A DNA stretch of 32,000 bases from Pseudidiomarina andamanensis (lineage in GTDB: Bacteria > Pseudomonadota > Gammaproteobacteria > Enterobacterales > Alteromonadaceae). The notes beneath the pieces were generated by a model, which saw nothing but the letters and a program-made list of their open reading frames with translations, made no database searches and had not been told where the DNA came from. Location of the stretch: contig NZ_CP032551.1 of NCBI RefSeq assembly GCF_009734345.1, forward strand, positions 2,340,001-2,372,000, given 5' to 3'. The position numbers were made by a program, and so were the translations under genes. This document shows, piece by piece, positions 1 through 16,536 of the stretch (its first letter is position 1; the number at the start of each line of letters is the position of its first letter).

Positions 1-310
1 CGTGCTGCTGTTAAATACGGTGTTGACGGTGGAGCAGGGCAAAGCTCACTCACATGCAAGTTGGGGATGGGAAACTTTCACCGATAAAGTGGTTGAACAA
101 ATTAACCAGCATTGCGAAGGTATCGTGTTCTTGTTGTGGGGTGCGCATGCACAAAAGAAAGGCGCGTTGATTAATCGCAAGCGCCATCATGTTTTAGAGA
201 CGGTGCATCCGTCGCCGTTATCGGCGCATCGCGGCTTTCTCACCGCTGGCCACTTCCGCCAAACCAACCAACTGCTCACGCAGCAAGGCAAAAGCGTTAT
301 TCGTTTTTAG
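1..310 (+). CDS. ung: Uracil-DNA glycosylase, C-terminal part (5' end lies off the window)
   Basis: The ORF 2..310 translation [55 protein letters not shown] is near-colinear with the family-1 UDG C-terminal half, including the HPSPLSA motif. The last five codons and the stop lie inside a heptamer repeat element. Confidence 0.9.
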
Positions 311-390
311 TTATTCGTTACTCGTTATTCGAGGGTCTCGATTTTCGCTTTTGGTTTATCGAATAACCAATAACGAGTAACGAACAACGC
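294..390. repeat. Heptamer-array palindromic element, copy A (between convergent ung and the small ORF)
   Basis: The left arm is AAAGCGTTATTCGTTTTTAGTTATTCGTTACTCGTTATTCGA. The right arm is TCGAATAACCAATAACGAGTAACGAACAACGC (359-390). The arms are imperfectly complementary and each is built from tandem 7-mers. Confidence 0.85.
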
Positions 391-392
391 TT

Positions 393-560
393 TTACAGGT
401 CTAATTCGTCGAGTTCGGCATCGAATTCAAAATCGATATCTTGGAGTTCGTCGCGTAACCGATACTTTTCTTTCAGCATCTCAATTTCACGCCACTTACG
501 AGGGGCTGCTTTCTTGCTAGACTTAGATTCAACTTGCTTTAGCTCTTCTGAATGATCCAT
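393..560 (-). CDS. Small (55 aa) acidic/basic hypothetical protein. It resembles the short conserved KWREIE-type proteins (DUF3545-like) seen next to suhB in some gammaproteobacteria.
   Basis: Hand translation of the minus strand gives MDHSEELKQVESKSSKKAAPRKWREIEMLKEKYRLRDELQDIDFEFDAELDELDL*. A GGAGGA SD sits 4 nt upstream of the ATG (plus-strand tcctcc at 565-570). It is missing from the ORF track because it is under 60 aa. The family assignment is from memory only. Confidence 0.5.
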   Translation of the reverse strand: MDHSEELKQVESKSSKKAAPRKWREIEMLKEKYRLRDELQDIDFEFDAELDELDL

Positions 561-660
561 TGGATCCTCCGGCTTTTATTGTGTTGTTGTTCTAATTTTG
601 TGCCTGTTTTTTTGCATAGCGCAACATGGTTATAACACGAGCTGTTTGAAAAGTGAACAC

Positions 661-689
661 TTGCTTAACTGCCTCATTCTACGTATAAT
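661..689 (+). promoter_or_regulatory. Candidate sigma70 promoter of suhB
   Basis: TTGCTT (661-666), a 17-nt spacer, then TATAAT (684-689), followed by the GC-rich discriminator CCGCGCCC. It lies about 40 nt upstream of the suhB ATG. Confidence 0.6.
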
Positions 690-731
690 CCGCGCCCACA
701 AAATTGTTCTTTCACAGCACAGGTAATTGGT

Positions 732-1532
732 ATGCATCCGATGTTAAACATAGCGGTGCGCGCAGCGCGTGCGGCCGGTAAAATTTTAGTCAAAAACTTT
801 GGCGTAGAAGTTGACCTTAACGTTCAAACGAAAAGCCAAAACGATTTCGTCACCGAAATTGATAAATCGGCTGAAAGTGCCATCATTCGCACCATTCAAA
901 AAGCCTACCCAGATCACTCTTTCTTAGCAGAAGAAAGTGGTGAAGTGGTTGGCAAAGACAGCGACCATCAGTGGATTATTGACCCACTTGACGGTACCAC
1001 CAATTACCTGCGCGGTATTCCTCATTTTGCCGTATCTATCGCTTACCTATTTAAAGGTGTTGTGCACGCAGCCGTCGTTTATGATCCGCTGCGCGAAGAA
1101 CTATTTACCGCAACCAAAGGCCAAGGTGCACAGCTAAACGGCAAGCGTTTACGCGTAACCAAACAACGCGACTTGAACGGTGCTTTACTAGCCACCGGTT
1201 TCCCATTCAAACGTAAAGACATGACCAAAGATTATCTCGCGGTGTTTGCAGCGTTATTCGAACACACAGCTGATATGCGTCGTGACGGCTCTGCAGCTCT
1301 AGACCTTGCATATGTTGCTACCGGCCGTATCGATGGTTTCTGGGAATTCAGCCTCAAACCATGGGATATTGCAGGCGGTCAATTAATCGTGCGTGAAGCG
1401 GGCGGTATCGTCACAGATTTCGCTGGCGGTCATGGCTTTATGCGCAACGGTCACGTGGTAGCAGGTAATCCGAAGGTAGTGCAGCATTTGCTAACCAAAG
1501 CGCGCCCGCACTTACCTGAAAGCTTGAAGTAA
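732..1532 (+). CDS. suhB: Inositol-1-monophosphatase / SuhB
   Basis: The N-terminus MHPMLNIAVRAARAAG is almost identical to E. coli SuhB. IMPase motifs are present: EESG, WIIDPLDGTTNY, WDIAAG-like (WDIAGG). Confidence 0.93.
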   Translation: MHPMLNIAVRAARAAGKILVKNFGVEVDLNVQTKSQNDFVTEIDKSAESAIIRTIQKAYPDHSFLAEESGEVVGKDSDHQWIIDPLDGTTNYLRGIPHFAVSIAYLFKGVVHAAVVYDPLREELFTATKGQGAQLNGKRLRVTKQRDLNGALLATGFPFKRKDMTKDYLAVFAALFEHTADMRRDGSAALDLAYVATGRIDGFWEFSLKPWDIAGGQLIVREAGGIVTDFAGGHGFMRNGHVVAGNPKVVQHLLTKARPHLPESLK

Positions 1533-1677
1533 AACGTTACTCGTTATTCGTTATTGGTTATTTGTTGACGGCGGTAGCGAATAGCCAAGAATTCCGCGCA
1601 GCACCGGAGCAAAATTCGGAGCTGCGCGTAACAGCAAAAGAAGCCACGAATAACGAATAACCAATAACGAACAACGC
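1533..1677. repeat. Heptamer-array palindromic element, copy B (suhB-trmJ spacer), long variant with an inner hairpin
   Basis: The left arm is AACGTTACTCGTTATTCGTTATTGGTTATTTGTTGAC (1533-1568). The right arm is CCACGAATAACGAATAACCAATAACGAACAACGC (1644-1677). The centre carries an 8-bp stem, CGCGCAGC (1595-1602) with GCTGCGCG (1621-1628). Confidence 0.85.
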
Positions 1678-1694
1678 AGTTAAAGGTTTAAACC

Positions 1695-2411
1695 ATGCTG
1701 GAAAGAATTCGAATTGTTTTAGTCAACACCAGCCACACCGGCAACATCGGCTCAGTAGCCCGCGCCATGAAAACCATGGGGCTGAGCGAACTGTATCTGG
1801 TTGATCCTGTGCAGGAACCAGACAGTCATGCATCGGCACTCGCAGCCGGTGCTACTGATGTGTTGTACAACGCGAAAATCGTATCCACCTTGAGCGAAGC
1901 CATCGGTGATTGTGGTTTGGTGGTTGGCACCAGTGCCCGCAATCGTACCTTAGACTGGCCGTTGTTAGGCCCGCGCGAAGCGGCAGCGAAAGTCTTGGCA
2001 GAAGCACCGAACTATCCGGTTGCTATGGTGTTTGGCCGTGAGAGTAGTGGCCTGACCAACGAAGAATTGCAGCAATGCACGCATCATGTACATATTCCTT
2101 CGAACCCTGATTACAGCTCGTTAAATTTAGCAATGGCGGTGCAAACACTGGCTTACGAAGTACGTATGCAATTCTTAGAAGCAGACGCTCACCCTGAGCG
2201 CGAGCAAAGTGAGTACCCACTTGCTGAAGATCTCGAGCGTTTCTACGTGCATTTAGAAGAAACCTTGGGCGAAACCGGCTTCATCATCAAAAACCATCCA
2301 GGCCAAGTGATGGCGAAGCTACGCCGTTTGTTTAATCGTGCGCGTCCGGAATCTGCCGAGCTTAATATTCTGCGCGGCATCCTGACCTCAATCGACAAGA
2401 AAATTCGTTAA
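1695..2411 (+). CDS. trmJ: tRNA (cytidine/uridine-2'-O-)-methyltransferase TrmJ (SpoU family)
   Basis: [30 protein letters not shown] closely matches the E. coli TrmJ N-terminus. The suhB-trmJ-iscR synteny supports the call. The stop codon lies within a heptamer repeat. Confidence 0.9.
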
Positions 2412-2562
2412 TCGTTATTCGTTGCTCGTTATTGGTTATTCGTCATTCGAGGCGCATTTATACGAATGACCAAAATCGCCGCACAGAAAAAAGTGATAGC
2501 TTTCAACTGTATTAACGAGCGAGAGGGACAACGAATAACGAATAACGAGCAACGAATAACGG
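2403..2562. repeat. Heptamer-array palindromic element, copy C (trmJ-iscR spacer), long variant
   Basis: The left arm has seven tandem heptamers: ATTCGTT AATCGTT ATTCGTT GCTCGTT ATTGGTT ATTCGTC ATTCGAG (2403-2451). The right arm is CAACGAATAACGAATAACGAGCAACGAATAACGG (2529-2562). An inner hairpin pairs GTCATTCG (2442-2449) with CGAATGAC (2463-2470). Confidence 0.85.
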
Positions 2563-2571
2563 CTCTTAAGA

Positions 2572-2604
2572 ATACTTGACTAAAATAGTCGGGAATGGCA
2601 AAAT
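2572..2604 (+). promoter_or_regulatory. iscR promoter with an overlapping IscR type-1 operator
   Basis: ATACTTGACTAAAATAGTCGGGAAT (2572-2596) matches 24 of 25 positions of the type-1 IscR consensus as I recall it (ATASYYGACTRWWWYAGTCRRSTAT). The embedded -35 is TTGACT (2576-2581), followed by a 17-nt spacer and CAAAAT (2599-2604). Confidence 0.65.
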
Positions 2605-2635
2605 TGAGGCCTAACTAAATGGAGGCAACACCGCT

Positions 2636-3118
2636 ATGCGTTTAACCTCAAAAGGCCGCTACGCCGTAACCGCAATGATTGACGTTGCATTGCATACAGA
2701 ACAGGGTCCAGTACCACTGGCGGATATTTCCGAACGCCAAGGTATTTCCTTGAGTTATCTTGAACAATTATTTGCGCGTTTGCGTAAACAGGGTCTGGTA
2801 AGCAGTGTGCGCGGACCAGGCGGCGGTTATCGATTAGGCCTAGAAGCCCATCAAATTTCAATTAGTGCTGTCATTCAAGCGGTGGATGAAAGCATTGACG
2901 CCACGCGTTGCCAAGGAAAGGGCGGTTGCCAAGGCGGAAGTCGTTGCCTAACGCACTCGTTATGGACCGACTTAAGCGAACGTATTGAAGATTTTCTGGC
3001 TGGCATCACGTTAGCCGAGCTGGTCAAGCAAGAAGACATTGCACAAGTGGCATTACGCCAAAATAAGATTATTTCCGACCAGAAAAAACGCGAAAACCAA
3101 ATTGCATTGAGCCAGTAA
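2636..3118 (+). CDS. iscR: Fe-S cluster assembly transcriptional regulator IscR (Rrf2 family)
   Basis: [19 protein letters not shown] is an Rrf2 wHTH. Cluster-ligand cysteines are present ([16 protein letters not shown]). It sits directly upstream of iscS. A GGAGG SD is at 2621-2625. Confidence 0.93.
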
Positions 3119-3143
3119 GCAGTCTGGCAAGAGGAGTAGCTTG

Positions 3144-4358
3144 ATGAAATTACCGATTTATTTCGATTATGCAGCAACCACCCCAGTTGATCCGCGTGTT
3201 GCTGAAAAAATGATGCAGTTTCTGACCCCAGATGGTCAGTTCGGTAACCCTGCGTCACGCTCGCATCGCTTTGGTTGGCAAGCCGAAGAAGCGGTTGATA
3301 TTGCCCGTAACCAAGTGGCAGAACTCATCAACGCTGACCCGCGCGAAATCGTATTTACCTCGGGCGCAACCGAGTCAGACAACCTGGCTATTAAAGGTGC
3401 AGCTGAGTTTTACAGCAAAAAAGGTAAGCACATCATCACGGTGAAAACAGAGCACAAAGCAGTGCTTGATACTTGCCGTCAAATGGAGCGTGAAGGCTTC
3501 GAAGTAACTTACCTTGACGTGCAAGAAGATGGATTAATCAACATCGACGCATTCAAAGCAGCACTGCGCGAAGACACAGTATTAGTTAGCGTGATGCACG
3601 TGAACAACGAAATTGGTGTGATTCAAGATCTCGAAACTATCGGTAACTTGTGTCGCGCGAACAAAACCATCTTCCACGTAGACGGCGCACAAAGCTGCGG
3701 AAAAATTGATGTGGATATGGAAAAGCTTCCGGTTGATTTGTTTAGCATCTCAGCTCACAAAATGTATGGCCCGAAAGGCGTTGGCGCATTGTATGTTCGC
3801 CGTAAGCCACGGGTACGCTTAAACGCACAAATGCACGGCGGTGGTCATGAGCGTGGTATGCGTTCTGGCACATTGGCAACGCATCAATTAGTAGGCTTCG
3901 GCGAAGCGGCGCGTATTGCGAAAGAAGAAATGGCCGCTGAGCGTGAGCGCTTCAAAATGTTGCACGACCGTTTGTGGAACGGTGTCAAAGATATTGAAGA
4001 AGTATATGTGAACGGTAACCAAGAGCACGCGGTGCCACACATCTTTAACATCAGCTTCAACTTCGTAGAAGGCGAAAGCTTGATTATGGCGTTGAAAGAC
4101 TTAGCGGTATCGTCAGGTTCAGCTTGTACATCTGCAAGCCTTGAACCTTCGTACGTATTACGTGCATTAGGCCGCAACGACGAATTGGCTCATAGCTCAA
4201 TTCGCTTCAGCTTCGGTCGTTTCACCACCGAAGAAGAAGTCGACTACGCCATTAAACAAATTAACAATTCAATTGGTCGTCTACGCGACATGTCACCCCT
4301 TTGGGAAATGTACAAAGACGGCGTCGACCTTACCAAGGTCGAATGGGTGGCACACTAA
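3144..4358 (+). CDS. iscS: Cysteine desulfurase IscS
   Basis: [26 protein letters not shown] matches the IscS N-terminus. The PLP-lysine region [12 protein letters not shown] and active-site loop SSGSACTS are present. I start at ATG 3144 (GAGGAG SD at 3131-3136) rather than the track's TTG 3141. Confidence 0.95.
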
Positions 4359-4373
4359 GAGAGGTAACACGGT

Positions 4374-4757
4374 ATGGCATACAGCGAAAAAGTAATCGAC
4401 CATTATGAAAACCCGCGCAACGTAGGCGCATTCGACAAAAACGATCCGTCTATTGCAACTGGTATGGTCGGCGCACCAGCATGTGGTGACGTGATGAAGT
4501 TACAGTTGAAAATCAACGACGACGGCATCATTGAAGATGCGAAGTTTAAAACCTACGGCTGTGGTTCTGCTATTGCGTCAAGCTCGCTAGTCACCGAATG
4601 GGTGAAAGGCAAATCTATTGCCGAAGCTGAGCAACTGAAAAATACGCAAATTGCTGAAGAATTAGCGTTGCCACCAGTGAAAATTCACTGTTCAATTTTG
4701 GCTGAAGACGCAATTAAAGCAGCAATTGCAGACTACAAAAAGAAACACGCAGGTTAA
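4374..4757 (+). CDS. iscU: Fe-S cluster scaffold IscU
   Basis: MAYSEKVIDHYENPRNVG, GAPACGDVMKL, TYGCGSAIASSS and LPPVKIHCS form the canonical IscU motif set. Confidence 0.95.
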   Translation: MAYSEKVIDHYENPRNVGAFDKNDPSIATGMVGAPACGDVMKLQLKINDDGIIEDAKFKTYGCGSAIASSSLVTEWVKGKSIAEAEQLKNTQIAEELALPPVKIHCSILAEDAIKAAIADYKKKHAG

Positions 4758-4769
4758 TTAGGTTAGCAA

Positions 4770-5093
4770 ATGGCAATTACCATAACTGAAGCAGCGGCGC
4801 AGCGTGCCCGTTCGTTTCTGGAACAACGCGGTAAAGGTGTTGGTATCCGCTTAGGTGTAAAAACCACCGGATGCTCCGGCCTTGCCTACGTGATGGAATT
4901 TGTTGATGAAGTCGACGATACCGACACCATCATTGAAGACAAAGGCGTGAACATTGTCATAGATGGCAAGAGCTTGGTTTATCTCGATGGCACCGAAATC
5001 GACTTCGTCAAAGAAGGCCTAAACGAAGGCTTCGAATTCCGTAATCCGAACGCCAAAGGCGAATGTGGTTGCGGCGAGAGCTTCAACGTTTAA
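4770..5093 (+). CDS. iscA: Fe-S cluster insertion / A-type carrier IscA
   Basis: A 107-aa protein with GCSG and a C-terminal CGCGESF motif. It occupies the position after iscU. Confidence 0.93.
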
Positions 5094-5103
5094 CAGGTAA
5101 AAA

Positions 5104-5604
5104 ATGAATCATTTTGAACTGTTTGATATGCCCGCCGCATTCAATTTGGATGCGGCGGAATTACAACAGCGCTACCGAAAACTACAACAAACCATGCATC
5201 CCGATCGTTTTGCCAACGGCAGCGAGCGCGATAAGTTGATGGCGGTACAACGTACTTCCCAACTTAATGATGCGTATCAAACCTTGCGTTCACCGCTGTC
5301 GCGCGCTGAGTATTTACTCGAGCTACGTGGCATTGAACTCGCCCATGAGCAAACCACCTTGCAAGACCCTGAGTTTCTCATGGCGCAAATGGAATGGCGC
5401 GAGCGCATTGAAGAAGTTGATGATTTTGATTCGCTTGACGCGGCCTACAAAGATTTGCAAGAGCAGATGCGTGATTTGCAATCAGAGCTTGAACAGCAGC
5501 TGAATAGTGATGCCAATGATGAGGCAGCAAATACGGTGCGTAAGTTGAAGTTTATGCACAAACTGCATCACGAGCTCGAACAGCTTGAAGACAAACTGAA
5601 TTAA
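5104..5604 (+). CDS. hscB: Co-chaperone HscB (J-domain)
   Basis: MNHFELF...YRKLQQTMHPDRF carries the J-domain HPD motif. It lies between iscA and hscA. Confidence 0.9.
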   Translation: MNHFELFDMPAAFNLDAAELQQRYRKLQQTMHPDRFANGSERDKLMAVQRTSQLNDAYQTLRSPLSRAEYLLELRGIELAHEQTTLQDPEFLMAQMEWRERIEEVDDFDSLDAAYKDLQEQMRDLQSELEQQLNSDANDEAANTVRKLKFMHKLHHELEQLEDKLN

Positions 5605-5688
5605 AAAGCGTTATTCGTTATTGGTTATTGGTTACTCGAAGTTTTGTTTAGGTTTTTCGAATAACGATTAACGAATAACGAACAACGA
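5605..5688. repeat. Heptamer-array palindromic element, copy D (hscB-hscA spacer, inside the isc operon)
   Basis: The left arm is AAAGCGTTATTCGTTATTGGTTATTGGTTACTCGAA (to 5640). A 15-nt T-rich loop follows. The right arm is TTCGAATAACGATTAACGAATAACGAACAACGA (5656-5688). Confidence 0.88.
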
Positions 5689-5702
5689 AATAGAGGTTTT
5701 AA

Positions 5703-7601
5703 ATGGCTTTATTACAAATTGCGGAGCCGGGCCAAAGCACCGCGCCCCACCAACATCGACTCGCTGCCGGCATCGACCTCGGCACCACTAACTCATTGGT
5801 GGCGACCGTGCGTAGCGGTGAAGCGAAGGTGTTGCGTGACGAGCAAGACCGCGCCATTTTGCCATCGGTTGTTTATTACGGCGCTAATGAAGTACTTACC
5901 GGACATGAAGCACTAGCCAAACACGCAGATAAGAATATTGATACCGAGAACACCATTGTTTCGGTGAAGCGTTTTATTGGCCGCACCATTGCCGACGTGC
6001 AGAAAAACTTCTCAAATCTACCGTATCGTATGAGCGAAACCGATAATGGTGTGCCGGTATTCCATACTGCAGCTGGTGAGAAGAATGCTGTGGAAGTATC
6101 AGCTGATATCTTACGTACGTTAGCGGCTCGCGCTGAAGCGTCGTTAGGTGGCGAGTTAACCGGTGTGGTCATTACGGTGCCGGCGTATTTTGATGACGCA
6201 CAGCGCCAAAGTACGAAAGACGCCGCTCAGCTAGCTGGCCTGAAAGTATTACGCTTATTAAATGAACCGACTGCTGCGGCAGTCGCGTACGGTCTTGACT
6301 CTGGCCGCGAAGGCTTGATTGCCGTATACGATTTAGGTGGCGGCACCTTCGATATCTCTATTCTTCGTCTACAGGGTGGTGTGTTTGAAGTTCTGGCAAC
6401 CGGTGGTGATAGTGCCCTCGGCGGTGATGACTTCGACCAACTCATCGTCAACTGGCTCAAGCAAGAATGGCAGTTACCAGACAACGTTGACGCTCGCACC
6501 GAGCGCGACCTCGTCAACGCCGCCAAAGCCGCCAAAGAGCAATTGACGGACGTAGCCCGGCGTTCCACGCCGGGTGGCGAAGCCGTTAATATCGAGCCGG
6601 TCAACGGTATCGAATCGAAAACAGCCGTTGCACTGTCTCTTGCAAAATTTAATGAGCTCATTGAGCCATTAGTACGCCGTACGCTTTCAGCCTGCCGTCG
6701 CGCCCTAAAAGATGCCGACGTCAGCGCCGATGAAATCCTTGATGTCGTCATGGTTGGCGGTTCAACCCGCGTGCCACGCATTCGCGAAGCAGTTGGCGAA
6801 TTTTTCGGTCGCGAGCCATTAACCTCCATCGACCCCGATCAAGTCGTGGCGATTGGTGCCGCAGTACAAGCCGATATCTTAGCCGGCAACAAGCCAGATT
6901 CTGACATGTTGTTACTCGATGTGATTCCATTATCACTAGGCCTTGAAACCATGGGCGGCTTGGTCGAAAAAGTCGTCGCGCGAAATACGACGATTCCGGT
7001 GGCCAAAGCTCAAGAATTTACCACCTTCAAAGATGGCCAAACCGCCATGATGATCCACGTGGTGCAGGGCGAGCGTGAGTTAGTTGATGATTGCCGCAGC
7101 TTGGCGCGTTTCGTATTAACCGACATTCCGCCAATGGCAGCTGGAGCCGCACACATTCGTGTAACATTCCAAGTGGACGCCGACGGTTTGCTCAGTGTCA
7201 CCGCTATGGAAAAATCGAGCGGCGTCACTGCGTCGGTGCAAGTGAAACCATCATACGGCTTAGGCGATGATGACATCACCAAAATGATTCAGTCGTCCAT
7301 GACCAACGCCAAAGAAGACATGGCTGCGCGTATGCTACGTGAACAGCAAGTAGAAGCCGACCGCGTGTTAGAAGCCCTAAGCAGCGCATTAGCGGCTGAC
7401 GGCGCCTTGTTAAATGAACAAGAACGCACAATATTAGATGACGCCATGGACGCCTTGCGCATTGCTCGCAACGGTACCGATACCGACGTCATTGAAAAGG
7501 CCATTGAAGCCGTCGATAAAGCTAGCGATGATTTCGCTGCCCGCCGCATGGACGAGAGCATTCGCAAAGCTCTCTCCGGCAGCAAAGTCGACGAATTGTA
7601 G
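5703..7601 (+). CDS. hscA: Fe-S protein assembly chaperone HscA (Hsp70 family)
   Basis: [26 protein letters not shown] is nearly identical to the E. coli HscA N-terminus. Hsp70 motifs run throughout. Confidence 0.95.
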
Positions 7602-7616
7602 AGTAACGAGGTTTTT

Positions 7617-7955: not shown

Positions 7956-7992
7956 TAAGAGAGGTGCAGTCCAAGGACTGCACCCCACCTCC
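7954..7992. repeat. GC-rich palindromic element, copy P1 (immediately after the fdx stop)
   Basis: The sequence is AATAAGAGAGGTGCAGTCCAAGGACTGCACCCCACCTCC. The core GGTGCAGTCC/GGACTGCACC is a perfect 10-bp inverted repeat around AA. Confidence 0.9.
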
Positions 7993-8002
7993 TGCTCAAA
8001 AC

Positions 8003-8069: not shown

Positions 8070-8357
8070 ATGAATTCCGAGCTATTCCTGCAAGCAGTCG
8101 GCGAACTGATCAAAAAGCACCGCACACAAACCATGGACCAAGAAGAGTTCGCGAAGCGTTTGGGCTGTGGTGTGAATACCGTGTACCGTATGGAAAACGG
8201 GCAGGGCGTGAATGCAATGACTCTTGTTTCGGCTCTTGAACTCCTCGGTTTATTGGGGGAGTTTACAGACGTCGTTGATGAGCAGCTTGCGCGCGTGGCC
8301 GACGCACCAGAGCGCAAGCGCCGTAAACCGGTTGAGGATTTCTCCAATGATTTCTGA
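8070..8357 (+). CDS. XRE-family HTH protein, HipB-like antitoxin
   Basis: A 95-aa protein with an HTH (QEEFAKRLGCGVNTVYRMENGQ). Its 3' end overlaps the hipA-like start by 11 nt (ATG 8347; stop 8355-8357). Confidence 0.75.
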   Translation: MNSELFLQAVGELIKKHRTQTMDQEEFAKRLGCGVNTVYRMENGQGVNAMTLVSALELLGLLGEFTDVVDEQLARVADAPERKRRKPVEDFSNDF

Positions 8358-9549
8358 AGCCTATATATTCATTGAAGGCTTAGAAGACGAGCCAGTCATT
8401 TGTGCGAAATTTCGTTACGATATCGCACGCAAAGTCGGGCAGCTGCGTTACGGGAAATCCTATCTATCGCGTGATGATGCCTTTCCGCTCGATCCGATAC
8501 ACCTACCACTTAGCCAAGAAATTTTTACCACCAAACTCAATAAGGGCATCTTCGGGGTGTTAAGCGATGCCGGAGCGGATGCTTGGGGTCGTAAACTGAT
8601 TCTGCAATTGCGTAAAACCAAACCGCAAAACGAACTTGAGTTTTTGATTGCTGGCGCCACTATGGGCGTTGGTGCTATTAGCTTTAGTTTGTCGCGCACC
8701 AAAGCTAAGGCAAAACAATCTCGCAATACGCTGGATGATTTGGACTTACTACTACGTGGGAAAAGAGCCATTCTCAACTCAGAGAATGTCAGTGTCGAGG
8801 TTAAAAAAGCATTCCAGTTCGGTGACTCAATGGGGGGGGCGCGTCCGAAAACCTTGTTAGTTGATAACCATCAAACGTATTTATTGAAGTTTAACCGAGC
8901 CGACGATCTGTATAATGTCGCTCGCGTCGAATACGCCACCATGCAGATGCTAACCGAGCTCGAGGGGGTACGCACTGCGGATGTACGTTTGCTTGAAGGT
9001 GAAGAGGATGCGTTGATGGTGAAGCGTTTCGATAGGCATTTCGACGGTGTTATCGAATCGGTATCGCATCATTTTATCAGTGCAAACGCACTCTTGATGA
9101 ATGACCATGTGAATGAGACAGCGCTGCGAAGTTGGTACTCTTATGGCGCACTGGCCGAGTTATTGCGTAAACACAGTGCTTCGGCCGACGATGCCCCCGA
9201 GTTATTCAAACGTATGGTGTTTAACGTACTGATTGGTAATACCGACGACCATGCTCGAAATCATGCCATGTTGTGGCATTTACAAGAACGGTATTGGCGA
9301 TTAGCACCTGCTTATGATGTGCTTCCGATTAGTAATAGCAAGGAGCATGGATTAGGAATTGGCGATGATGGGCGTGCCGGCACTGTGGGAAACTTAATGT
9401 CGCAGTCACGTCGATTTGGGCTGCAGCCATACAAAGCGCGAGCAGTCATAAACGAAGTACAAGAGCTAATAGCAGAATGGCCAATTTACTTCCGACGCCA
9501 CGGTGTCGGTGATGGCGACATTGAAATCCTCCGTAGCATTATTGCATAA
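8347..9549 (+). CDS. HipA-family serine/threonine kinase toxin (400 aa)
   Basis: It has a HipA N-terminal-like SDAGADAWGRKL motif and a C-terminal catalytic loop LIGNTDDHARNH. The start is placed at the in-frame ATG 8347 (MISEAYIF...). The track ORF start at 8224 would overlap most of the antitoxin gene. Confidence 0.85.
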   Translation: MISEAYIFIEGLEDEPVICAKFRYDIARKVGQLRYGKSYLSRDDAFPLDPIHLPLSQEIFTTKLNKGIFGVLSDAGADAWGRKLILQLRKTKPQNELEFLIAGATMGVGAISFSLSRTKAKAKQSRNTLDDLDLLLRGKRAILNSENVSVEVKKAFQFGDSMGGARPKTLLVDNHQTYLLKFNRADDLYNVARVEYATMQMLTELEGVRTADVRLLEGEEDALMVKRFDRHFDGVIESVSHHFISANALLMNDHVNETALRSWYSYGALAELLRKHSASADDAPELFKRMVFNVLIGNTDDHARNHAMLWHLQERYWRLAPAYDVLPISNSKEHGLGIGDDGRAGTVGNLMSQSRRFGLQPYKARAVINEVQELIAEWPIYFRRHGVGDGDIEILRSIIA

Positions 9550-9555
9550 ACAGGG

Positions 9556-9592
9556 AATAAGAGGGGTGCAGTCCAAGGACTGCACCCCACCT
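9556..9592. repeat. GC-rich palindromic element, copy P2 (between convergent hipA-like and msrA)
   Basis: AATAAGAGGGGTGCAGTCCAAGGACTGCACCCCACCT matches P1 at 36 of 37 nt, in the same orientation. Confidence 0.9.
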
Positions 9593-9596
9593 TTTT
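9561..9596. terminator. Candidate bidirectional intrinsic terminator formed by P2
   Basis: A 12-bp GC-rich stem (GGGGTGCAGTCC/GGACTGCACCCC) is followed by ACC + TTTTT on the plus strand, 12 nt after the hipA-like stop. The msrA stop (9595-9597) abuts it from the other side. The minus-strand T-tract is weaker (CTTATTCC). Confidence 0.55.
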
Positions 9597-10128
9597 AGCC
9601 GTCGAGTTTCTCGGCAAATGTACGTTTAAATTTCGCCAATTTCGGGTGTACTACCGCCTGGCAGTAGGCGTTTTCAGGATTGCGTTCCACGTAATTCTCG
9701 TGATATTCCTCAGCTGGCCAGAATTTCTCCAGCGCCTCAATAGTCGTCACAATCGGCGCATCCCACGTTTGCTCGCGCTCCATTTCAGCAATAATCTCTT
9801 CCGCCAAACGTCTTTGCTCGTCGGTTTGATAGAAAATCGAGGTGCGATATTGCGTACCAATGTCGTTGCCTTGACGGTTCACCTGAGTTGGATCATGCAG
9901 AGCAAAAAAGATCTCATAAATTTCACGTACGCTCAGAGCAACCGGGTCAAACGTAATCTGAATCACTTCAGCGTGACCCGTATCGCCCTTGCACACTTCT
10001 TCGTATGTCGGTTCGGCTTTATGACCACCAGCGTAACCTGACTGAACTTTCAGTACGCCGCGAACCTGCTTAAAGGCGCCTTCAAGACACCAAAAGCAAC
10101 CGCCACCTAATGTAATTTGTTGCGTCAT
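9595..10128 (-). CDS. msrA: Peptide-methionine (S)-S-oxide reductase MsrA
   Basis: MTQQITLGGGCFWCLEGAF contains the MsrA GCFWC active site. The start is at the internal ATG 10128, with a GAGG SD 5 nt upstream (plus-strand cctc at 10134-10137). The 51-aa N-terminal extension in the track ORF is read-through of a palindromic repeat. Confidence 0.9.
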   Translation of the reverse strand: MTQQITLGGGCFWCLEGAFKQVRGVLKVQSGYAGGHKAEPTYEEVCKGDTGHAEVIQITFDPVALSVREIYEIFFALHDPTQVNRQGNDIGTQYRTSIFYQTDEQRRLAEEIIAEMEREQTWDAPIVTTIEALEKFWPAEEYHENYVERNPENAYCQAVVHPKLAKFKRTFAEKLDG

Positions 10129-10195
10129 AACTACCTCATTAATTATATGGACGTCTAGATGCCCACACTTTACGCCCGTTCCACCCAAAGCGCAA

Positions 10196-10232
10196 GAGGA
10201 GGGGGGCAGTCCTTGGACTGCCCCCCTCCTTT
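10196..10232. repeat. GC-rich palindromic element, copy P3 (divergent msrA/ndk spacer)
   Basis: The sequence is GAGGAGGGGGGCAGTCCTTGGACTGCCCCCCTCCTTT. A perfect 16-bp inverted repeat (10197-10212 with 10215-10230) surrounds TT. The core has T-to-G and A-to-C compensatory changes relative to P1 and P2. Confidence 0.88.
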
Positions 10233-10258
10233 CGCTTGTCATAGGTTTTATGTATAAT
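10231..10258 (+). promoter_or_regulatory. Candidate promoter of ndk
   Basis: TATAAT (10253-10258) is followed by the GC-rich discriminator CCGCGCG. A weak -35, TTCGCT (10231-10236), sits 16 nt upstream. The 13-nt string GTATAATCCGCGC is identical to the suhB promoter. Confidence 0.5.
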
Positions 10259-10314
10259 CCGCGCGACTTAAACTTAGGCAACCTTTAACTTTAAAAACTC
10301 GATTGGAGAAAATC

Positions 10315-10746
10315 ATGGCTTTAGAGCGCACTTTATCAATCATCAAGCCAGACGCAGTTGGCAAAAACGTCATTGGCGCTATCTACAACCGCTTCGAAAC
10401 TGCGGGTTTCCGTATTGTTGCAGCGAAAATGATGCACTTGAGCACCGAGCAAGCAGAAGGCTTCTACGCTGAACACAAAGAGCGTCCATTCTTCCGCGCA
10501 TTGGTTGACTTCATGACTTCTGGCCCAATCATGGTGCAAGTATTGGAAGGCGAAGACGCAGTAAAACGTCACCGCGACATCATGGGTGCAACTAACCCAA
10601 CTGACGCATTGGCAGGAACTTTGCGCGCAGACTATGCTGTATCTATTGATGAGAATGCAGTTCACGGTTCTGACGCGTTAGAATCAGCGGCTCGCGAAAT
10701 TGCATACTTCTTCACTGAAGAAGAACTCTGCGCCCGCACCCGCTAA
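10315..10746 (+). CDS. ndk: Nucleoside diphosphate kinase
   Basis: [15 protein letters not shown]...NAVHGSD is canonical Ndk. The start is at ATG 10315 (GGAGAA SD at 10305-10310), not the track's TTG 10303. Confidence 0.95.
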
Positions 10747-10750
10747 AAGC

Positions 10751-10853
10751 AAAAGCGTTACTCGTTATTCGTTAGTCGAGCGCTTCGCTTGTCGTTAAGC
10801 CCGACTACGAATAACGAATAACCAATAACGAATAACCAGTAACGAACAACGCC
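10751..10853. repeat. Heptamer-array palindromic element, copy E (ndk-rlmN spacer)
   Basis: The left arm is AAAAGCGTTACTCGTTATTCGTTAGTCGAG (10751-10780). The right arm is CGACTACGAATAACGAATAACCAATAACGAATAACCAGTAACGAACAACGC (10802-10852). Confidence 0.88.
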
Positions 10854-10866
10854 GTTAAGGTTTTAT

Positions 10867-12000
10867 ATGAATGCTGTAGACAAAAAAGTGAACTTACTCG
10901 ACTTGAACCGCGAAGGTATGCGCGCGTTCTTCAAAGAGTTGGGTGAAAAACCATTTCGCGCCGACCAGGTCATGAAGTGGGTTTATCACTATTGCGTCGA
11001 CGACTTCGATCAAATGACCAACCTCAACAAGGTCTTACGAGAGAAGCTCAAGCAGGTGGCCGAGATTCGGGCGCCTGAAGTGCGTATGCAACAGCAATCA
11101 TCAGACGGCACCATTAAGTTCGCAATGACCTTATTCGATGGTCAGGATGTGGAAACCGTATGGATTCCAGATCGTGATCGTGCCACCTTATGCGTGAGCT
11201 CGCAGGTGGGTTGTGCACTGGAGTGCACGTTCTGTTCAACCGCGCAGCAAGGCTTTAACCGCAACCTCAAGGTTGCGGAAATTATCGGCCAAGTATGGCG
11301 CGTGAACAAATTGCTCGGCGCCTTTGGCGACACCGGCGTGAAAGCCGTTACCAACGTGGTGATGATGGGCATGGGCGAACCGTTGCTCAACCTGAACAAC
11401 GTGGTACCAGCAATGGATCTGATGCTAGATGACAATGCCTTTGGTTTATCCAAACGTCGCGTCACGCTCAGCACCTCAGGCGTTGTACCGGCGCTTTACA
11501 AGCTGAAAGAAGAAATTGATGTTGCCCTCGCCATTTCACTTCACGCGCCGAACGATGAGTTGCGTAATGAAATTGTGCCAATCAATAAGAAGTACAACAT
11601 TCAAGAATTCTTAAAAGCGAGCCGCGATTATATCGACGGCAGCAAAGCCAATAAAAACATCACCATTGAGTACGTGATGCTTGATCATATCAATGACTCA
11701 ATGGAACAAGCCGCCGAACTTGCAGAGCTTCTCAAAGATACGCCGTGCAAGATCAACCTCATTCCGTTTAATCCATTCCCAGGTTCAGACTATGGTCGTT
11801 CGAGCAATTCACGCATCGACCGATTCGCCAAAGTGCTGATGGAAAAAGGCTACATTGTGGTGGTTCGACGCACTCGTGGTGACGACATTGACGCCGCATG
11901 CGGTCAGCTGGTGGGGGATGTCATTGACCGTACCAAGCGCATTCTGAAGAAGCAGCAAGCACAGCGCGGTGGTGATGGAATTCAAGTGAAAGCGGTTTAA
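10867..12000 (+). CDS. rlmN: 23S rRNA/tRNA m2A methyltransferase RlmN (radical SAM)
   Basis: It has the radical-SAM motif CALECTFC, an RlmN-type N-terminus ([12 protein letters not shown]) and a C-terminal DIDAACGQL. The ndk-rlmN synteny supports the call. Confidence 0.93.
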
Positions 12001-12108
12001 TCGCACTCAAAATCCCTACTTAAGACAAACTTAACACGGCTTTGACGCCGCATCGCTTGATCTACCGCTGATAAAGGTTAAGATAGCTTTCTTTACAGGG
12101 GGATTTTC

Positions 12109-12876
12109 ATGCGGATACTATTGCTTGTGCTGTTTACCGCGCTCGTCACGACTGGGTGTGTCAGTCAGCGCACGGTTGATGGTAAGCAACAACCTGCTCA
12201 ACAATTCAATGCACAAGAGGCGGCGCGTACGCGGCTTGCCTTGGGTTTGCAGTATTTACGCAGTGGTAACTTCGAGCAAGCGAAAGCAAATTTAGAGCGC
12301 GCTCGCGAATATACTCCCGAAAATGCCGACGTCTACACTGGCCTTGCTTACTACTATCAGCAAGTTCGCGATTTCAAAAGCGCCGAAGCGCACTACCGAA
12401 AAGCCATTGATTTAAAACCCAAAGATGGCGATAACTATAACAATCTCGGCGTGCTACTGTGTGGTCAGCAACGCTATAATGACGCCGACCAAATGTTCCG
12501 CAAGGCGGTTGCGCAACCTGGTTACGTGAAAGTTGCCAGCACTTATGAAAATGCCGCGCGCTGTGCAGCCGAGCAGGGTGACCTAGCAAACGCTGATCGC
12601 TATTACGAATTGGCGTTGAACCACAGTGGTGGCGGCGTCAACATACTTGAAAATTACGCCTCCTTGTTAATGCAGCAAAAACGCTACGACAAGGCAGCAA
12701 CCATGATAGAACGCCGCAGTAATTACCCCCAATTATCGGCGCAATACTTGTGGTTAGAAGTGCAGTTAGCCCATGCCCAGAACCAGAAGAATAAACGGCA
12801 GCAATTTGGCGATCTGCTGGTACAGCGCTTTCCTGCATCGCAGCAAGCGACTGATTATCTCAAACTTATCAAATAG
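12109..12876 (+). CDS. pilW: Type IV pilus biogenesis/stability TPR lipoprotein PilW (PilF-like)
   Basis: It has a signal peptide with a lipobox-like TTGC and TPR repeats. It sits in the conserved slot between rlmN and rodZ. Confidence 0.75.
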   Translation: MRILLLVLFTALVTTGCVSQRTVDGKQQPAQQFNAQEAARTRLALGLQYLRSGNFEQAKANLERAREYTPENADVYTGLAYYYQQVRDFKSAEAHYRKAIDLKPKDGDNYNNLGVLLCGQQRYNDADQMFRKAVAQPGYVKVASTYENAARCAAEQGDLANADRYYELALNHSGGGVNILENYASLLMQQKRYDKAATMIERRSNYPQLSAQYLWLEVQLAHAQNQKNKRQQFGDLLVQRFPASQQATDYLKLIK

Positions 12877-12885
12877 CGATACCCC

Positions 12886-13968
12886 ATGGCACAAGATAAA
12901 GACTTATTTGAAGAAAATGCAGAGCCGGCTGAGCCACAGCCAGAGCCGTATACTGGCGAAACGCCCGGTCAAATTTTTCGCGAAGCACGTGAAGCAAAAG
13001 GCTTAAGTACGCAACAGGTAGCAGATAACTTACGCCTGCGTAAGGTTGTTGTTGAATACATGGAAGCCGATGATTACGACCAGTTATCGTCGCCAACCTA
13101 CGTGCGTGGTTATTTGCGCTCGCTCAGTAAAGCGCTTGAAGTTGACGAAGCACGAGTGTTTGAAGCCTACAGAAAAATGGGCTTCGGCCAGGTGGTGCCA
13201 AGCACTATCACTATGCAGAGTTTCTCGAAGCGCAAAGTACGCGAACGCAACGATAACCGCTTGATGCTAATTAGCTACTTAATTATTGCCGTTGTCATTG
13301 CGATGGCCGTGGTGTGGTGGTGGCAAGATAGCAATGCTGGCAATATGTTTGCAGACGGCAACGGCAATAACGGTGCCAGCCAACAAATCACCGAACGTCA
13401 GCCAACGCGTCGAACCGAAACGCAAGTGCGCGAGCAGTTGCAAAGCTCGAACAACACGATGCAATCGAACACCGTGGATGATAGCGGAAATGATTCAGGC
13501 ACTACCTCAGGCAGCGTTGACGCAACCGAAACAACAGCCGACAACGCCAGCAAGAACACCAGCAGCCCGATTGTAACGGGCGCAGATAACTCGCAAGAAT
13601 CGCCCGTTGTCACCGAAGAGCCAGAGCCAACTACCCGCACCGACAGTCGCTCGGCTAGTACCGATAATAATCAGGTTGTTGCCGACACCAGCCGTGAAGC
13701 CCCAACCGTTACTGAACCTGTCGCCGCCAACCAAGCGAGTCTCGTCATGGAATTCAGTGGCGCTTGCTGGATCAAAGTCACTGATGGCACCGGCACCGAT
13801 ATCGCCATTGGCGTCAAAGAAGCGGGTTACAGAATGCCGCTGACGGGCGAGCCGCCATTTGATATCATTTTATGCAAGCCAGAATTCGTCGAATTGACGT
13901 ATAATGGAGAACCGGTTGATTTGAGCAATTATCGCCGCAACCGCAGCGTAACCATGACCTTGAACTGA
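12886..13968 (+). CDS. rodZ: Cytoskeleton protein RodZ
   Basis: Architecture: N-terminal XRE-type HTH (GQIFREAREAKGLSTQQVADNL), one TM helix (LISYLIIAVVIAMAVVWWW), a low-complexity S/T/N/D linker and a conserved C-terminal domain. The rodZ-ispG synteny supports the call. Confidence 0.85.
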   Translation: MAQDKDLFEENAEPAEPQPEPYTGETPGQIFREAREAKGLSTQQVADNLRLRKVVVEYMEADDYDQLSSPTYVRGYLRSLSKALEVDEARVFEAYRKMGFGQVVPSTITMQSFSKRKVRERNDNRLMLISYLIIAVVIAMAVVWWWQDSNAGNMFADGNGNNGASQQITERQPTRRTETQVREQLQSSNNTMQSNTVDDSGNDSGTTSGSVDATETTADNASKNTSSPIVTGADNSQESPVVTEEPEPTTRTDSRSASTDNNQVVADTSREAPTVTEPVAANQASLVMEFSGACWIKVTDGTGTDIAIGVKEAGYRMPLTGEPPFDIILCKPEFVELTYNGEPVDLSNYRRNRSVTMTLN

Positions 13969-13970
13969 TA

Positions 13971-14056
13971 AAAGCGTTAATGGTTATTCGTTATTGGTTA
14001 CTCGAAAAAATTAAAACCAACCACGAATAACGATTAACGAATAACGAGTAACGAAT
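13971..14056. repeat. Heptamer-array palindromic element, copy F (rodZ-ispG spacer)
   Basis: The left arm is AAAGCGTTAATGGTTATTCGTTATTGGTTACTCGAA (13971-14006). The right arm is CACGAATAACGATTAACGAATAACGAGTAACGAA (14022-14055). It ends 3 nt before the ispG ATG. Confidence 0.88.
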
Positions 14057-14058
14057 TT

Positions 14059-15168
14059 ATGCATTTAAACCCCATCAAACGTCGACCTTCTCGCCGTATC
14101 TACGTAGGTAACGTGCCGATTGGTGATAGCGCACCGATAGCCGTGCAATCGATGACCAACACCGAGACCACTGACGTGGCCGCCACGGTGAAACAGATTC
14201 AAGCCATTGCCAATGCCGGTGCTGACTTGGTGCGGGTGAGTGTGCCGACGATGGATGCCGCCGAAGCATTCAAATTCATCAAGCAGCAAAGTCCAATTCC
14301 ACTGGTGGCCGATATTCACTTTGACTATCGCATTGCCTTGAAAGTAGCGGAATACGGTGTCGACTGCCTGCGAATTAACCCAGGCAACATCGGTAACGAG
14401 CAACGTATTCGTGCAGTGGTTGATGCTGCGCGTGATCGTGGTATTCCTATTCGTATTGGAGTCAATGGCGGCTCGCTTGAAAAAGATTTGCAAGAAAAAT
14501 ACGGCGAGCCTACACCAGCCGCATTGGTTGAATCTGCCATGCGTCATGTGGATATTCTTGACCGCCTAAATTTCCATGACTTCAAAGTGAGCGTGAAAGC
14601 TTCCGATGTATTCTTGGCGGTTGAATCGTACCGTTTACTGGCGAAACAAATCGAACAACCATTGCACTTAGGTATCACTGAAGCAGGTGGCTTACGTAGT
14701 GGCTCAGTAAAATCATCGATTGGCCTTGGCATGCTGTTAGCCGAAGGTATTGGCGATACGTTGCGTATTTCACTGGCAGCCGACCCAGTGGAAGAAGTGA
14801 AAGTTGGCTTTGATATTTTAAAATCACTGCGTATTCGCAGCCGCGGCATCAATTTTATCGCTTGCCCAAGCTGTTCCCGCCAAGAATTTGACGTGATTGG
14901 TACCGTGAATGCGCTCGAGCAACGCCTTGAAGACATCACTACACCAATGGACGTGTCGATTATCGGTTGTGTGGTAAACGGCCCAGGCGAAGCTTTAATT
15001 TCTCATGTTGGCTTGGCTGGCGCGAAGAACAAAAGTGGTTTTTACCTCAATGGCGAGCGCCAAAAAGACCGTCTCGACAACGCCGATTTGGTCGATGAGC
15101 TCGAAAAACGTATCCGCGACCAAGTAAAACGTCTAGAAGCTGAACAGATTCCCGTGAAGCAAGCGTAA
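14059..15168 (+). CDS. ispG: 4-hydroxy-3-methylbut-2-en-1-yl diphosphate synthase IspG
   Basis: [24 protein letters not shown] is nearly identical to E. coli IspG. Cluster cysteines are present ([15 protein letters not shown]). Confidence 0.95.
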
Positions 15169-15245
15169 AGCTGCGGTATACTATGCGCCATTTTTCGTAA
15201 TAAATTTCCGTCTTAAGTAGACCCTAAGCAGAAAAGAACTCGAAC

Positions 15246-16496
15246 GTGGCAAAAAATATACAAGCAATTCGCGGCATGAACGACATCCTGCCGAATCAAA
15301 CCCCAGCGTGGCAATACGTTGAAGGTGTGATTCGTCAGGTGGCAGCCCAATATACCTACCAAGAAATTCGCATGCCGGTACTCGAAAGCACCGACCTGTT
15401 CAAGCGCTCCATTGGTGAAGTGACCGATATCGTCGAAAAAGAGATGTACACTTTCGATGATCGCAACGGTGACAGCTTAACCTTGCGCCCGGAAGGCACC
15501 GCCAGCTGTGTGCGCGCCGGTAACGAGCACGGCTTGCTATATAACCAAACCCAGCGTTTATGGTACTTGGGTCCAATGTTCCGTCATGAACGCCCGCAAA
15601 AAGGTCGCTATCGCCAGTTTCATCAGTTTGGTATTGAGGCGTTTGGTATGGATACACCAGACATTGATGCTGAAGTGATTTTGCTGTCAGCTCGTTTGTG
15701 GCAGGCATTTGGTATTAGCGAACAAGTCGAATTACAACTCAATTCATTAGCATCGAACGAAGCGCGGGCGCGATATCGTGACGCGTTACGTGAATTTTTG
15801 CGTGCTCATGAAGATAAGCTGGACGAAGACTCCAAGCGTCGTTTAGATACCAACGTGTTGCGTGTGCTCGATAGCAAATCGCCGGAAACCCAAGCGGTAC
15901 TTGCTGATGCACCAAAGTTATCGGAATATTGGGACGACGAATCGCGCGAGCATTTTAATGGCTTATGCAAACGTCTCGATGCGGCGGGTATTAAGTACGT
16001 ATTGAACGAACGTTTAGTCCGTGGTCTCGATTACTACAACCGTACCGTGTTTGAGTGGGTCACCACTGAACTTGGCGCGCAAGGCACGGTTTGTGCCGGT
16101 GGCCGATACGACGGTTTGGTTGAGCAGCTTGGCGGTAAACCAACGCCAGCTGTAGGCTTTGCTATGGGCATGGAACGCTTGGTCTTGTTGTTGGAGTCGC
16201 AAGGCAAAATTCCACCAGAGCAAGCTATTGATATTTACGTGATTGCAGCAACTGAAGCGGCGGAACTAATCGCCCCAGCCGTTGCCGAACAAATTCGAAG
16301 TGCCAAGCCGCAACTCAAAGTACAATTGCACAGCGGCACCCAGAACATGAAGAAGAAGTTGGCAAAAGCTGACAAGTCAGGCGCCACCTACGCCTTGCTT
16401 GTCCGCGACACCGATTTCGAACTAAAGCACCTGCGCGACCGCACCACCGACGCTATTGTGCTTAACAGCATCGACGAGCTATCGTTTCACGAATAA
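15246..16496 (+). CDS. hisS: Histidine--tRNA ligase
   Basis: It uses a GTG start. [40 protein letters not shown] and GGGRYDGL-like motifs are present. The last codons and stop (CAC GAA TAA) fall within a half heptamer element. Confidence 0.95.
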
Positions 16497-16517
16497 CGAT
16501 TAACGAACAACGAATAA
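16488..16517. repeat. Heptamer-array element, solo right arm (hisS 3' end to the yfgM spacer)
   Basis: CACGAATAACGATTAACGAACAACGAATAA is almost identical to the right arms at 14022 and 5658. I could not find a matching left arm upstream. It includes the hisS stop codon. Confidence 0.75.
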
Positions 16518-16536
16518 TGCATTTGAGGTTTTAAAA

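Follow-up and report, generated by a model that had tools for sequence, protein, structure and literature searches.

Palindromic spacer repeats with arms of tandem heptamers in housekeeping operons of Pseudidiomarina

The window analysed here is a stretch of 32,000 nucleotides of Pseudidiomarina andamanensis (assembly GCF_009734345.1, contig NZ_CP032551.1, positions 2,340,001 to 2,372,000 of the forward strand), and positions given below are those of the window unless a relative is named. It was found to contain the genes ung, DUF3545 (- strand), suhB, trmJ, iscRSUA-hscB, hscA-fdx, hipBA, msrA (- strand), ndk and rlmN, followed by a tetratricopeptide repeat (TPR) gene, rodZ, ispG, hisS, yfgM-bamB-der, hslRO (- strand) and the type II secretion system (T2SS) operon. 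Seven sites within the first ~16.5 kb were found to contain a repeat, here called family A, the arms of which consist of tandem 7-nt units; six of these are full palindromes and the seventh, at the 3′ end of hisS, contains a right arm alone. The window was compared with contigs of relatives, designated by L numbers. The IscS and IscU proteins were found to be identical to those on the contigs of L001 (a NORP-type metagenome-assembled genome, MAG) and L252 (I. tainanensis PIN1, PIQJ01), the DNA of which was 98.6% and 87% identical to the window, respectively; I. tainanensis PIN1 belongs to Idiomarinaceae clade II, i.e. Pseudidiomarina (PMC6193092). L001, L005 and L006 were 98.6-99.6% identical to the window, and the syntenic ung-suhB-trmJ-iscR region of Pseudidiomarina sp. 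EA23-05 was identical at 73-77%.

A full element was found to contain a T-rich left arm, (GTTAYTS)3-6, followed by a centre of 21-84 nt and by an A-rich right arm, (SARTAAC)3-6. In the left arm (n = 26 units) the nucleotides G (26), T (26), T (25) and A (24) at positions 1-4 and T (26) at position 6 were found to be conserved, and the variable positions were occupied by T17/C6/A2/G1 at position 5 and by C18/G6 at position 7. Tandem Repeats Finder called period-7 arrays for 13 arms with 3.3-6.7 copies each, and an inverted-repeat search of the window returned inverted arms of 23-38 nt with a complementarity of 81-97%. The motif GAATAACGAATAACGAATAAC, which represents three consensus units, was found to have 31 matches in the window with at most 3 mismatches, all of them within the seven sites, whereas 100 dinucleotide-preserving shuffles yielded 0 matches. 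The T-rich array always preceded the A-rich array, the reverse order occurring 0 times in the window. A rare unit mirrored between the two arms, GTTGCTC/GAGCAAC, was contained in element 3 alone.

An earlier note on this DNA, made from the letters, had described seven imperfect palindromes with a strict 7-nt register. All seven sites were found where it had placed them and the period-7 arrays bore out the register, the palindrome itself holding at six of them. Its dimensions did not survive measurement: the arms had been put at 3-7 units, the centre at 15-80 nt and the complementarity of the arms at 75-80%. The sequence AAAGCGTTA, said to introduce the left arm as a rule, was found in four of the six full elements, its place being taken by AAAACGTTA in element 2 and by AAATTCGTTA in element 3. 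The sequence CGAACAACGC, said to close the right arm as a rule, was found in three of the seven right arms, and two others contained CGAACAACGA. The coordinates of the elements are collected in the table.

Table. Heptamer-armed elements and related features; positions are those of the window unless a relative is named (fold energies in kcal/mol)
Feature	Position	Strand	Location	Left arm	Centre	Right arm	Inverted arms	RNA fold	Remarks
Element 1	290-394		between convergent ung and the DUF3545 gene	296-330 (5 units)	331-360	361-388 (4 units)	38 nt, 82% complementary	-33.8 (+) / -37.2 (-); z -5.5 / -7.6	head AAAAGC, tail GCTTTT
Element 2	1533-1677		suhB-trmJ spacer	1536-1563	84 nt	1648-1675		-57.8; z -6.8	right arm ends GAACAAC-GC; inner GC-rich hairpin in centre
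Element 3	2403-2562		trmJ-iscR spacer, upstream of the iscR promoter	2407-2448 (6 units)	84 nt	2533-2560	31 nt, 97% complementary		
Element 4	5605-5689		hscB-hscA spacer in the isc operon	5610-5637	21 nt	5659-5686		-28.4; z -5.4	
Solo unit GAGTAAC-GA	7601-7610	+	15-nt hscA-fdx spacer, otherwise empty						
Element 5	10751-10853		ndk-rlmN spacer	10757-10777 (3 units)		10809-10850 (6 units)		z -3.9	
Element 6	13971-14056		rodZ-ispG spacer	13976-14003	21 nt	14025-14052		z -5.8	
Element 7	16488-16518	+	3′ end of hisS			right-arm relic GAATAAC GATTAAC GAACAAC GAATAAT			no left-arm array upstream
Third periodic family	L106: ~4950-5130 and ~5640-5800	reverse (L106)							also in L049, L204, L230 and L256

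Every element was found to start 0-10 nt past, or overlapping, the stop codon of a + strand gene and mostly to end 2-20 nt ahead of the Shine-Dalgarno sequence or start codon of the next gene. The stop codon TAG of ung (308-310) was contained in the left arm of element 1, the TAA of trmJ (2409-2411) in the first unit of element 3 and the TAA of hisS (16494-16496) in the first unit of element 7. Seven of the left-half spacers of at least 40 nt downstream of a gene were found to contain family A, and the rest contained a GC-rich repetitive extragenic palindromic (REP) sequence or promoters. No match was found after 16518, as the earlier note had observed of the right half. The genes of the T2SS operon overlap or sit at most 10 nt apart, so that the absence of copies from this half mostly follows from there being almost no spacer room, and the confinement to the left half is as a pattern largely a matter of where there are spacers to occupy. 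The 10 kb that follow in a relative of 98.6% identity were found to contain spacers and no heptamer arrays. The single unit in the hscA-fdx spacer may be what is left of an element since deleted, or the starting point of another.

The two ends of the element can be told apart. The head was found to contain (TAA)-A/G-AGC-GTTA..., adjoining the stop codon of the co-oriented upstream gene, and the tail to contain ...GAACAAC-GC(TTTT). The outermost right unit was GAACAAC in five of the seven right arms of the window and in many relatives, and the outermost left unit never complemented it; because of this mismatch, head and tail are distinguishable. The head adjoined the upstream stop codon in all six full copies of the window and at four of four independent loci (L042, L144, L204, L230). 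Elements 4 and 6 contained near-identical arms with almost the same order of units. A sister family, B, with the unit GATATTA, differs from GTTATTC of family A by one substitution in the conserved core and by the free position 7, and shares with it the outer flanks AAAAGC/AAGAGC on the left and GCTTTT/GCTCTT on the right. The right arm of family B was found to contain one fixed order of four units at six loci, and its copies at rodZ-ispG in L001 and at ndk-rlmN in L002 were alike in the centre and in 13 nt of the right flank, a stretch that takes in the AAGG of the ribosome-binding site downstream. The polar head and tail and the unit order shared across loci imply that the copies were dispersed as units.

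Family A is not confined to the neighbourhood of the window, for it was found at 12 further loci in Pseudidiomarina genomes and metagenomes, as against the possibility, foreseen in the earlier note, that it occurs at these few sites alone. Eleven of the 12 contained no homology to the window by tblastx and L119 contained a short HipA-like match only. A metagenome scan with the tail motif SARTAACGAACAACGC was unspecific: ~115 of the 120 stretches listed were chance single matches, and the true family matches among them were L144, L162, L204, L215 and L230 only.

The length of the arms was found to vary between alleles of one locus in multiples of the unit. In the suhB-trmJ spacer L257 and L258 differed by 14 nt with 0 mismatches, and in the hscB-hscA spacer L255 differed from L256, and likewise from L252, by 7 nt with 0 mismatches. 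The right arm at ndk-rlmN contained 6 units in the window vs 4 in L215, i.e. two 7-nt indels. In element 3 of L001 three adjacent units of the left arm had all become GTTAATC with the right arm unaltered, a homogenisation confined to a single arm. Changes of arm length and homogenisation both proceed by steps of exactly 7 nt, which is the hallmark of slippage during replication. The arm growth by slippage proposed in the earlier note is borne out by these pure 7- and 14-nt indels, but slippage alone does not explain a family with a shared polar head, tail and unit order.

It would follow from a purely local origin that the elements are simple sequence repeats (SSRs) arising in place by polymerase slippage, for which heptamers are the favoured unit, the inverted partner being added by intrastrand template switching, with no mobility and no function. 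Besides the indels, this account can draw on the abundance of heptamer arrays of many motifs across many phyla. A motif scan of 185,579 genomes, the figures for which concern the matches listed (at least 120), returned eight Pseudidiomarina genomes and, beyond the genus, Bacteroidota (many of them Saprospiraceae), Cyanobacteria, Desulfobacterales, Verrucomicrobiota and further groups. Among these matches 87 arrays were solitary, 30 had the T-rich array upstream and 6 the reverse order, and the loci contained other period-7 arrays of 42 different motifs. In viral contigs the real motif was found in 24 stretches vs 20, 9 and 19 for three permuted heptamers. Because the permuted controls are about as common, the matches across phyla represent a generic heptamer-repeat phenomenon, and the candidate notion of one family widely conserved across phyla was rejected. 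The literature, too, ascribes the excess of heptamers to slippage (PMC4692102, PMC4679880), and the cognate arms of the elements are not specially matched, as described below. Against the local account, one motif with one polar head, one tail and a shared unit order recurs at many loci that are not linked, and does so in genera of 74-87% identity; two family B copies at different loci have their centre and flank in common, and the T-rich arm always comes first in this lineage. Synonymous sites change far more than the arms do, whereas the free arrays of other phyla show drift from one end to the other. The account is considered unlikely.

As an observation on such free arrays, L045:7700-7900 (a Pontiellaceae MAG, from an unrelated phylum) was found to contain adjacent GTTATTN and GATATTN heptamers, which correspond to families A and B, opposite a NAATAAC array; arrays drift there from one motif to another that is a single step away.

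A given spacer was found to be occupied, in members of a single species (98.6-99.6% identity), by family A, by family B, by a hairpin-forming pair of REPs (REPIN) of the GTAG type, or by nothing. The suhB-trmJ spacer contained family A in the window, L004 and L251 and family B in L001, L252, L254, L255, L257 and L258; in L256 family A enclosed another repeat, in Pseudidiomarina sp. EA23-05 the spacer was empty (5 nt), and no GTAG-REP-framed element was found. The trmJ-iscR spacer contained family A in the window, L001, L003 and L004, family B in L002, L006 and L251, and a GTAG-REP-framed element in L252, L254-L258 and L260. The hscB-hscA spacer contained family A in the window, L001, L003 and L006 and family B in all others, with none framed by GTAG REPs. 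The hscA-fdx spacer contained no family A, family B in L002, L254, L256 and L257, and a GTAG-REPIN in L251, L252, L255, L258 and L260; in the window, L001 and L003 it was empty save for one GAGTAAC unit. The final codons of suhB and hscB were found to move with the allele of the spacer. The elements were also found nested, with a family B arm within a family A element in P. marina and, in Pseudidiomarina sp. EA23-05, with heptamer palindromes built around GTAG-REPINs.

Two further occupants of these spacers may be recorded. The GTAG-REP-framed element of the trmJ-iscR spacer (L252:1534-1763, and the same spacer in L254-L258 and L260) contained inverted GTAG REPs around 1-4 tandem 30-nt units (CCTGATAACAGGCAATAA...), followed by the presence of a small palindrome, GGTATTAGCGACTTTGTCGCTAATAC; the left REP was missing in L258. 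A third periodic family, GAACAGC/GCTGTTC, with a 14-15-nt pattern ACGAACAGCGAAGCG, was found either in the interior of certain family A palindromes or in their place.

The replacement of one family by the other can be followed to the nucleotide in the rodZ-ispG spacer of L001, where exactly 13960-14058 was swapped for a family B element, the nearest other single-nucleotide polymorphisms (SNPs) being at 13727 and 14128; the replaced segment is bounded by the two flanking genes. Such swaps may be imports from a divergent lineage by simple recombination, which is rampant in this group, but the SNP map of L001 vs the window contained no divergent flanks.

The arms were found to be better conserved than their surroundings. 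Between the window and L251, identity was ~97% in the arms, ~85% in the whole spacer, 84-87% in the flanks and 56-68% at third codon positions; for element 2, kept there as a family A ortholog, the flanks were 86% and the arms ~97% identical. The ndk-rlmN element of L215 was ~95% identical to that of the window at the substitution level vs 67-77% at the third codon positions of the flanking genes, and the family B alleles at suhB-trmJ were 94-97% identical vs 84-91% for the flanking genes. These comparisons suggest that the sequence of the elements, beyond its pairing, is under constraint or homogenisation, and the strong conservation of the heptamers suggests either that the copies undergo gene conversion or that a trans-acting factor recognises them.

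Recognition could mean that the elements are, as the earlier note had also suggested, arrays of binding sites for a protein reading a 7-nt register, on DNA a ribbon-helix-helix protein or on single-stranded RNA or DNA a cold-shock protein; each cold-shock protein would occupy one heptamer, and the hairpin could be opened by them (PMC4679880). The conservation of the arms above that of synonymous sites would be compatible with such a protein. Five of the unit's seven positions hardly vary and the other two do so freely, which is how a recognition site would look, and the pattern is also found in GGGANTN of Xanthomonas (PMC4692102). The motif is moreover kept across Idiomarinaceae well above the neutral proxy, and the arms are better conserved than the centres. 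Yet no candidate protein was identified, any site is dispensable, as strains of more than 98.6% identity carry family B, an unrelated REPIN or no element at all in its place, and the number of units varies; binding arrays appear improbable as the primary nature of the elements. A bolder version, which the sequence comparisons leave at a similarly low probability, would make the arms recognition arrays for a lineage-specific trans-acting protein (a transposase, a recombinase or a binder with a 7-nt register) and families A and B together a new class of operon-compatible mobile palindromes that bring their own stop codon, B also the Shine-Dalgarno region, home to gaps between stop and start codons and overwrite one another. 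Were this so, the homing and overwriting would produce the sharply bounded allelic replacements observed within one species.

Both strands of the elements were predicted to fold into long AU-rich hairpins of -26 to -63 kcal/mol (z -3.8 to -8.9). The elements might accordingly be dedicated cis-regulatory RNAs (terminators, attenuators or RNase III sites), selected locus by locus for the expression ratios of operons. The very stable folds would suit such a role, as would the placement directly past stop codons and ahead of ribosome-binding sites and a head oriented with the upstream gene. In element 1 and several copies of relatives, an A-tract, a stem and a T-tract were found as in bidirectional terminators; within the window this frame, ending in GCTTTT, was contained in element 1 only, the centre of which also has, at 329-341, a small hairpin resembling a terminator with a T run behind it. 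A scan for intrinsic terminators (a GC-rich stem and a U tract) called no element save this inner hairpin, the copies within operons being without a U tract. A search of Rfam returned nothing at the gathering threshold, and a permissive one only sub-threshold hits to eukaryotic microRNA hairpin models with 29-40 bits vs thresholds of 74-117. With both strands folding equally, no compensatory pairing, and unrelated elements or an empty spacer at the same sites in near-identical strains, dedicated regulatory RNAs seem very unlikely.

On balance, family A is probably a lineage-specific noncoding palindromic repeat of Pseudidiomarina, akin to REPs and to miniature inverted-repeat transposable elements (MITEs), that has spread as a polar unit and evolves by slippage of its heptamers. 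The elements, spread as polar units, fill the spacers between stop codon and Shine-Dalgarno sequence, several of them supplying the stop codon of the upstream gene, after which the arms grow, shrink and homogenise by whole 7-nt slippage steps. In the mRNA the hairpin would loop out the insert and bring the stop codon near the downstream start, and this looping out would be the reason why insertions are tolerated, and possibly exploited, within tight operons. By analogy with REPs, the hairpin is probably a 3′ barrier or processing site tuning the relative stability of operon segments.

Several results weigh against this interpretation. The centres of family A were found to have no relation between copies, so that copying of whole units, clear only for family B, would for family A be supported mainly by the arms and termini. 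No transposase, REP-associated tyrosine transposase (RAYT) or other mobilising gene was seen in the sequences at hand, which included no complete genome. No target-site duplication was discerned in the comparison of empty with filled sites, where palindromic ends and remodelled gene ends mask any. The high conservation of the spacers could stem from recent exchange between lineages, the identities of the flanks being strongly mosaic. As for the RNA, the fold energies and G-U counts of sense vs antisense strands contained no consistent bias in 17 elements, and a functional strand sought in this way was not favoured in any direction. The complementarity of cognate arms was 0.891 vs 0.886 for non-cognate arms, without a sign of co-evolution, so that the pairing follows from the shared unit and not from compensation specific to an element. 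With neither an excess for cognate arms nor a G-U bias, nothing shows selection on a specific RNA structure.

The family offers a tractable case for the unexplained excess of heptamer repeats, being made of short paired arrays at defined positions in housekeeping operons. Alternative alleles in close strains and steps of one unit allow two questions to be tested with existing isolates, namely whether a heptamer array is a mere product of slippage or is read by a protein, and whether such hairpins alter expression inside operons. The system is also useful for the study of the turnover of spacer elements within a species. For annotation, the elements account for variable C-termini and stop codons of flanking genes, and they are handy strain markers.

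Other repeats were found in the same region. A GTAG-tagged REP, GTAGCCCGGCGTTCCACGCCGGGTGG, at 6552-6577 was contained in frame inside hscA, and L002 lacked it (LTDEAAVNIEP). The same loop of HscA contained longer in-frame insertions in relatives (L254:4833-6983; breakpoint at window 6595-6649), one of them with nine tandem copies of the 8-residue SRIDAQSE, and the length of HscA ranged from 624 to 716 aa across the window and relatives. The other repeat family named in the earlier note is a GC-rich palindrome (GGGGTGCAGTCC/GGACTGCACCCC) found at 7961-7986, 9556-9595 and 10192-10235, which flanks hipBA-msrA and scores terminator-like, with weaker copies at 26224-26283 and 30885-31094 inside T2SS coding sequence. 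The hipB-hipA toxin-antitoxin pair (~8070-9549), between fdx and msrA, was framed by these GC-rich REPs; it was present in L001 and L002 and absent in L256 and L257, where msrA directly follows fdx. The 234-nt spacer of the convergent der and hslR contained a perfect 26-nt inverted repeat, TGTTCAGTTGCATCAAAAAAGTTACA, with a 17-nt loop (20000-20068). The coding sequence of der (EngA) contained a 21-nt tandem repeat of ~3 copies (18929-19012), and this stretch also matched DUF3659. The motif GTATAATCCGCGC, with a -10-like box and a GC-rich discriminator, was found upstream of suhB (695-712) and ndk (10255-10270) and in L106, and was conserved upstream of suhB in Pseudidiomarina sp. EA23-05.

Compared with known systems, the family shares with REPs and REPINs the nature of short noncoding extragenic hairpins in co-directional and convergent spacers, the presence of several families per genome and the competition for spacers, which in relatives are held by genuine GTAG-REPINs; by analogy, similar roles in mRNA might be expected. 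The arms, however, are direct heptamer arrays, and only the whole element of 85-160 nt is palindromic, with no palindromic unit of 20-40 nt. A GTAG or CGTC tetranucleotide at one end is the hallmark of REPs (PMC3733652), whereas the elements lack such a tag and end in AAAAGC-GTTA... and ...AAC-GCTTTT, and their stems are AU-rich and not GC-rich. The long hairpin of a REPIN was found, but its arms are not REPs. The definitions of REP, bacterial interspersed mosaic element (BIME) and REPIN are none of them fitted, as the earlier note had held of classical repeats; its view that the periodicity stands apart gives way to precedents among intergenic heptamer repeats.

With MITEs the elements share a noncoding nature, terminal inverted repeats around a variable centre, a length of 85-160 nt that falls within 50-500 nt, a presence/absence polymorphism and dispersed copies with shared ends. 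A difference from MITEs lies in the terminal repeats, which have an internal period and vary in length through slippage; nor was a target-site duplication recognisable behind the palindromic ends, and no parent insertion sequence is known. Contiguous heptads, direct or inverted, are bound by the ribbon-helix-helix omega repressor of plasmid pSM19035, one dimer per heptad, and the elements resemble such operator or centromere arrays in having contiguous 7-bp repeats in direct or inverted order. Fur-box hexamer arrays and the A-R-N repeats of Hfq were dropped from consideration, the period being 7 and not 6 or 3. Elhai et al. 2008 are reported to have described, in Nostoc, tandem heptamers that enclose small dispersed repeats; the GTAG-REPIN in EA23-05 and the family B arm in P. 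marina are likewise small repeats inside heptamer arrays, whereas phylum and motifs differ.

The passages of PMC4692102 and PMC4679880 that cite Mrazek 2007 give intergenic heptamers as the commonest long SSRs in bacteria. In Xanthomonas GGGANTN, of which GGGAATC is one form, positions 1-4 and 6 are conserved and some arrays occur in inverted pairs; TAACTGA heptamers are found in Beggiatoaceae, Cyanobacteria and Bacteroidetes, and heptanucleotide repeats (cyanobacterial STRR) also in Calothrix (PMC4692102, PMC4679880). Like these, the elements contain tandem 7-nt units in noncoding spacers, overlapping coding sequence at stop codons only, with a number of units that is polymorphic at the same gene pair in close relatives. 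The fixed positions 1-4 and 6 recur in GTTANTS, a likeness to the Xanthomonas unit that is a lead and not a test. Inverted pairing is the rule here (six of the seven sites) and the exception there, and the elements follow stop codons, whereas heptameric SSRs lie just upstream of start codons. Further differences are the low number of units per array (3-6), an AT-rich composition that offers no potential for a G-quadruplex, a conserved polar head and tail, dispersal as units and the existence of sister families. The family combines two known things, palindromes of the REP/MITE kind and intergenic heptamer repeats, and is no new kind of system.

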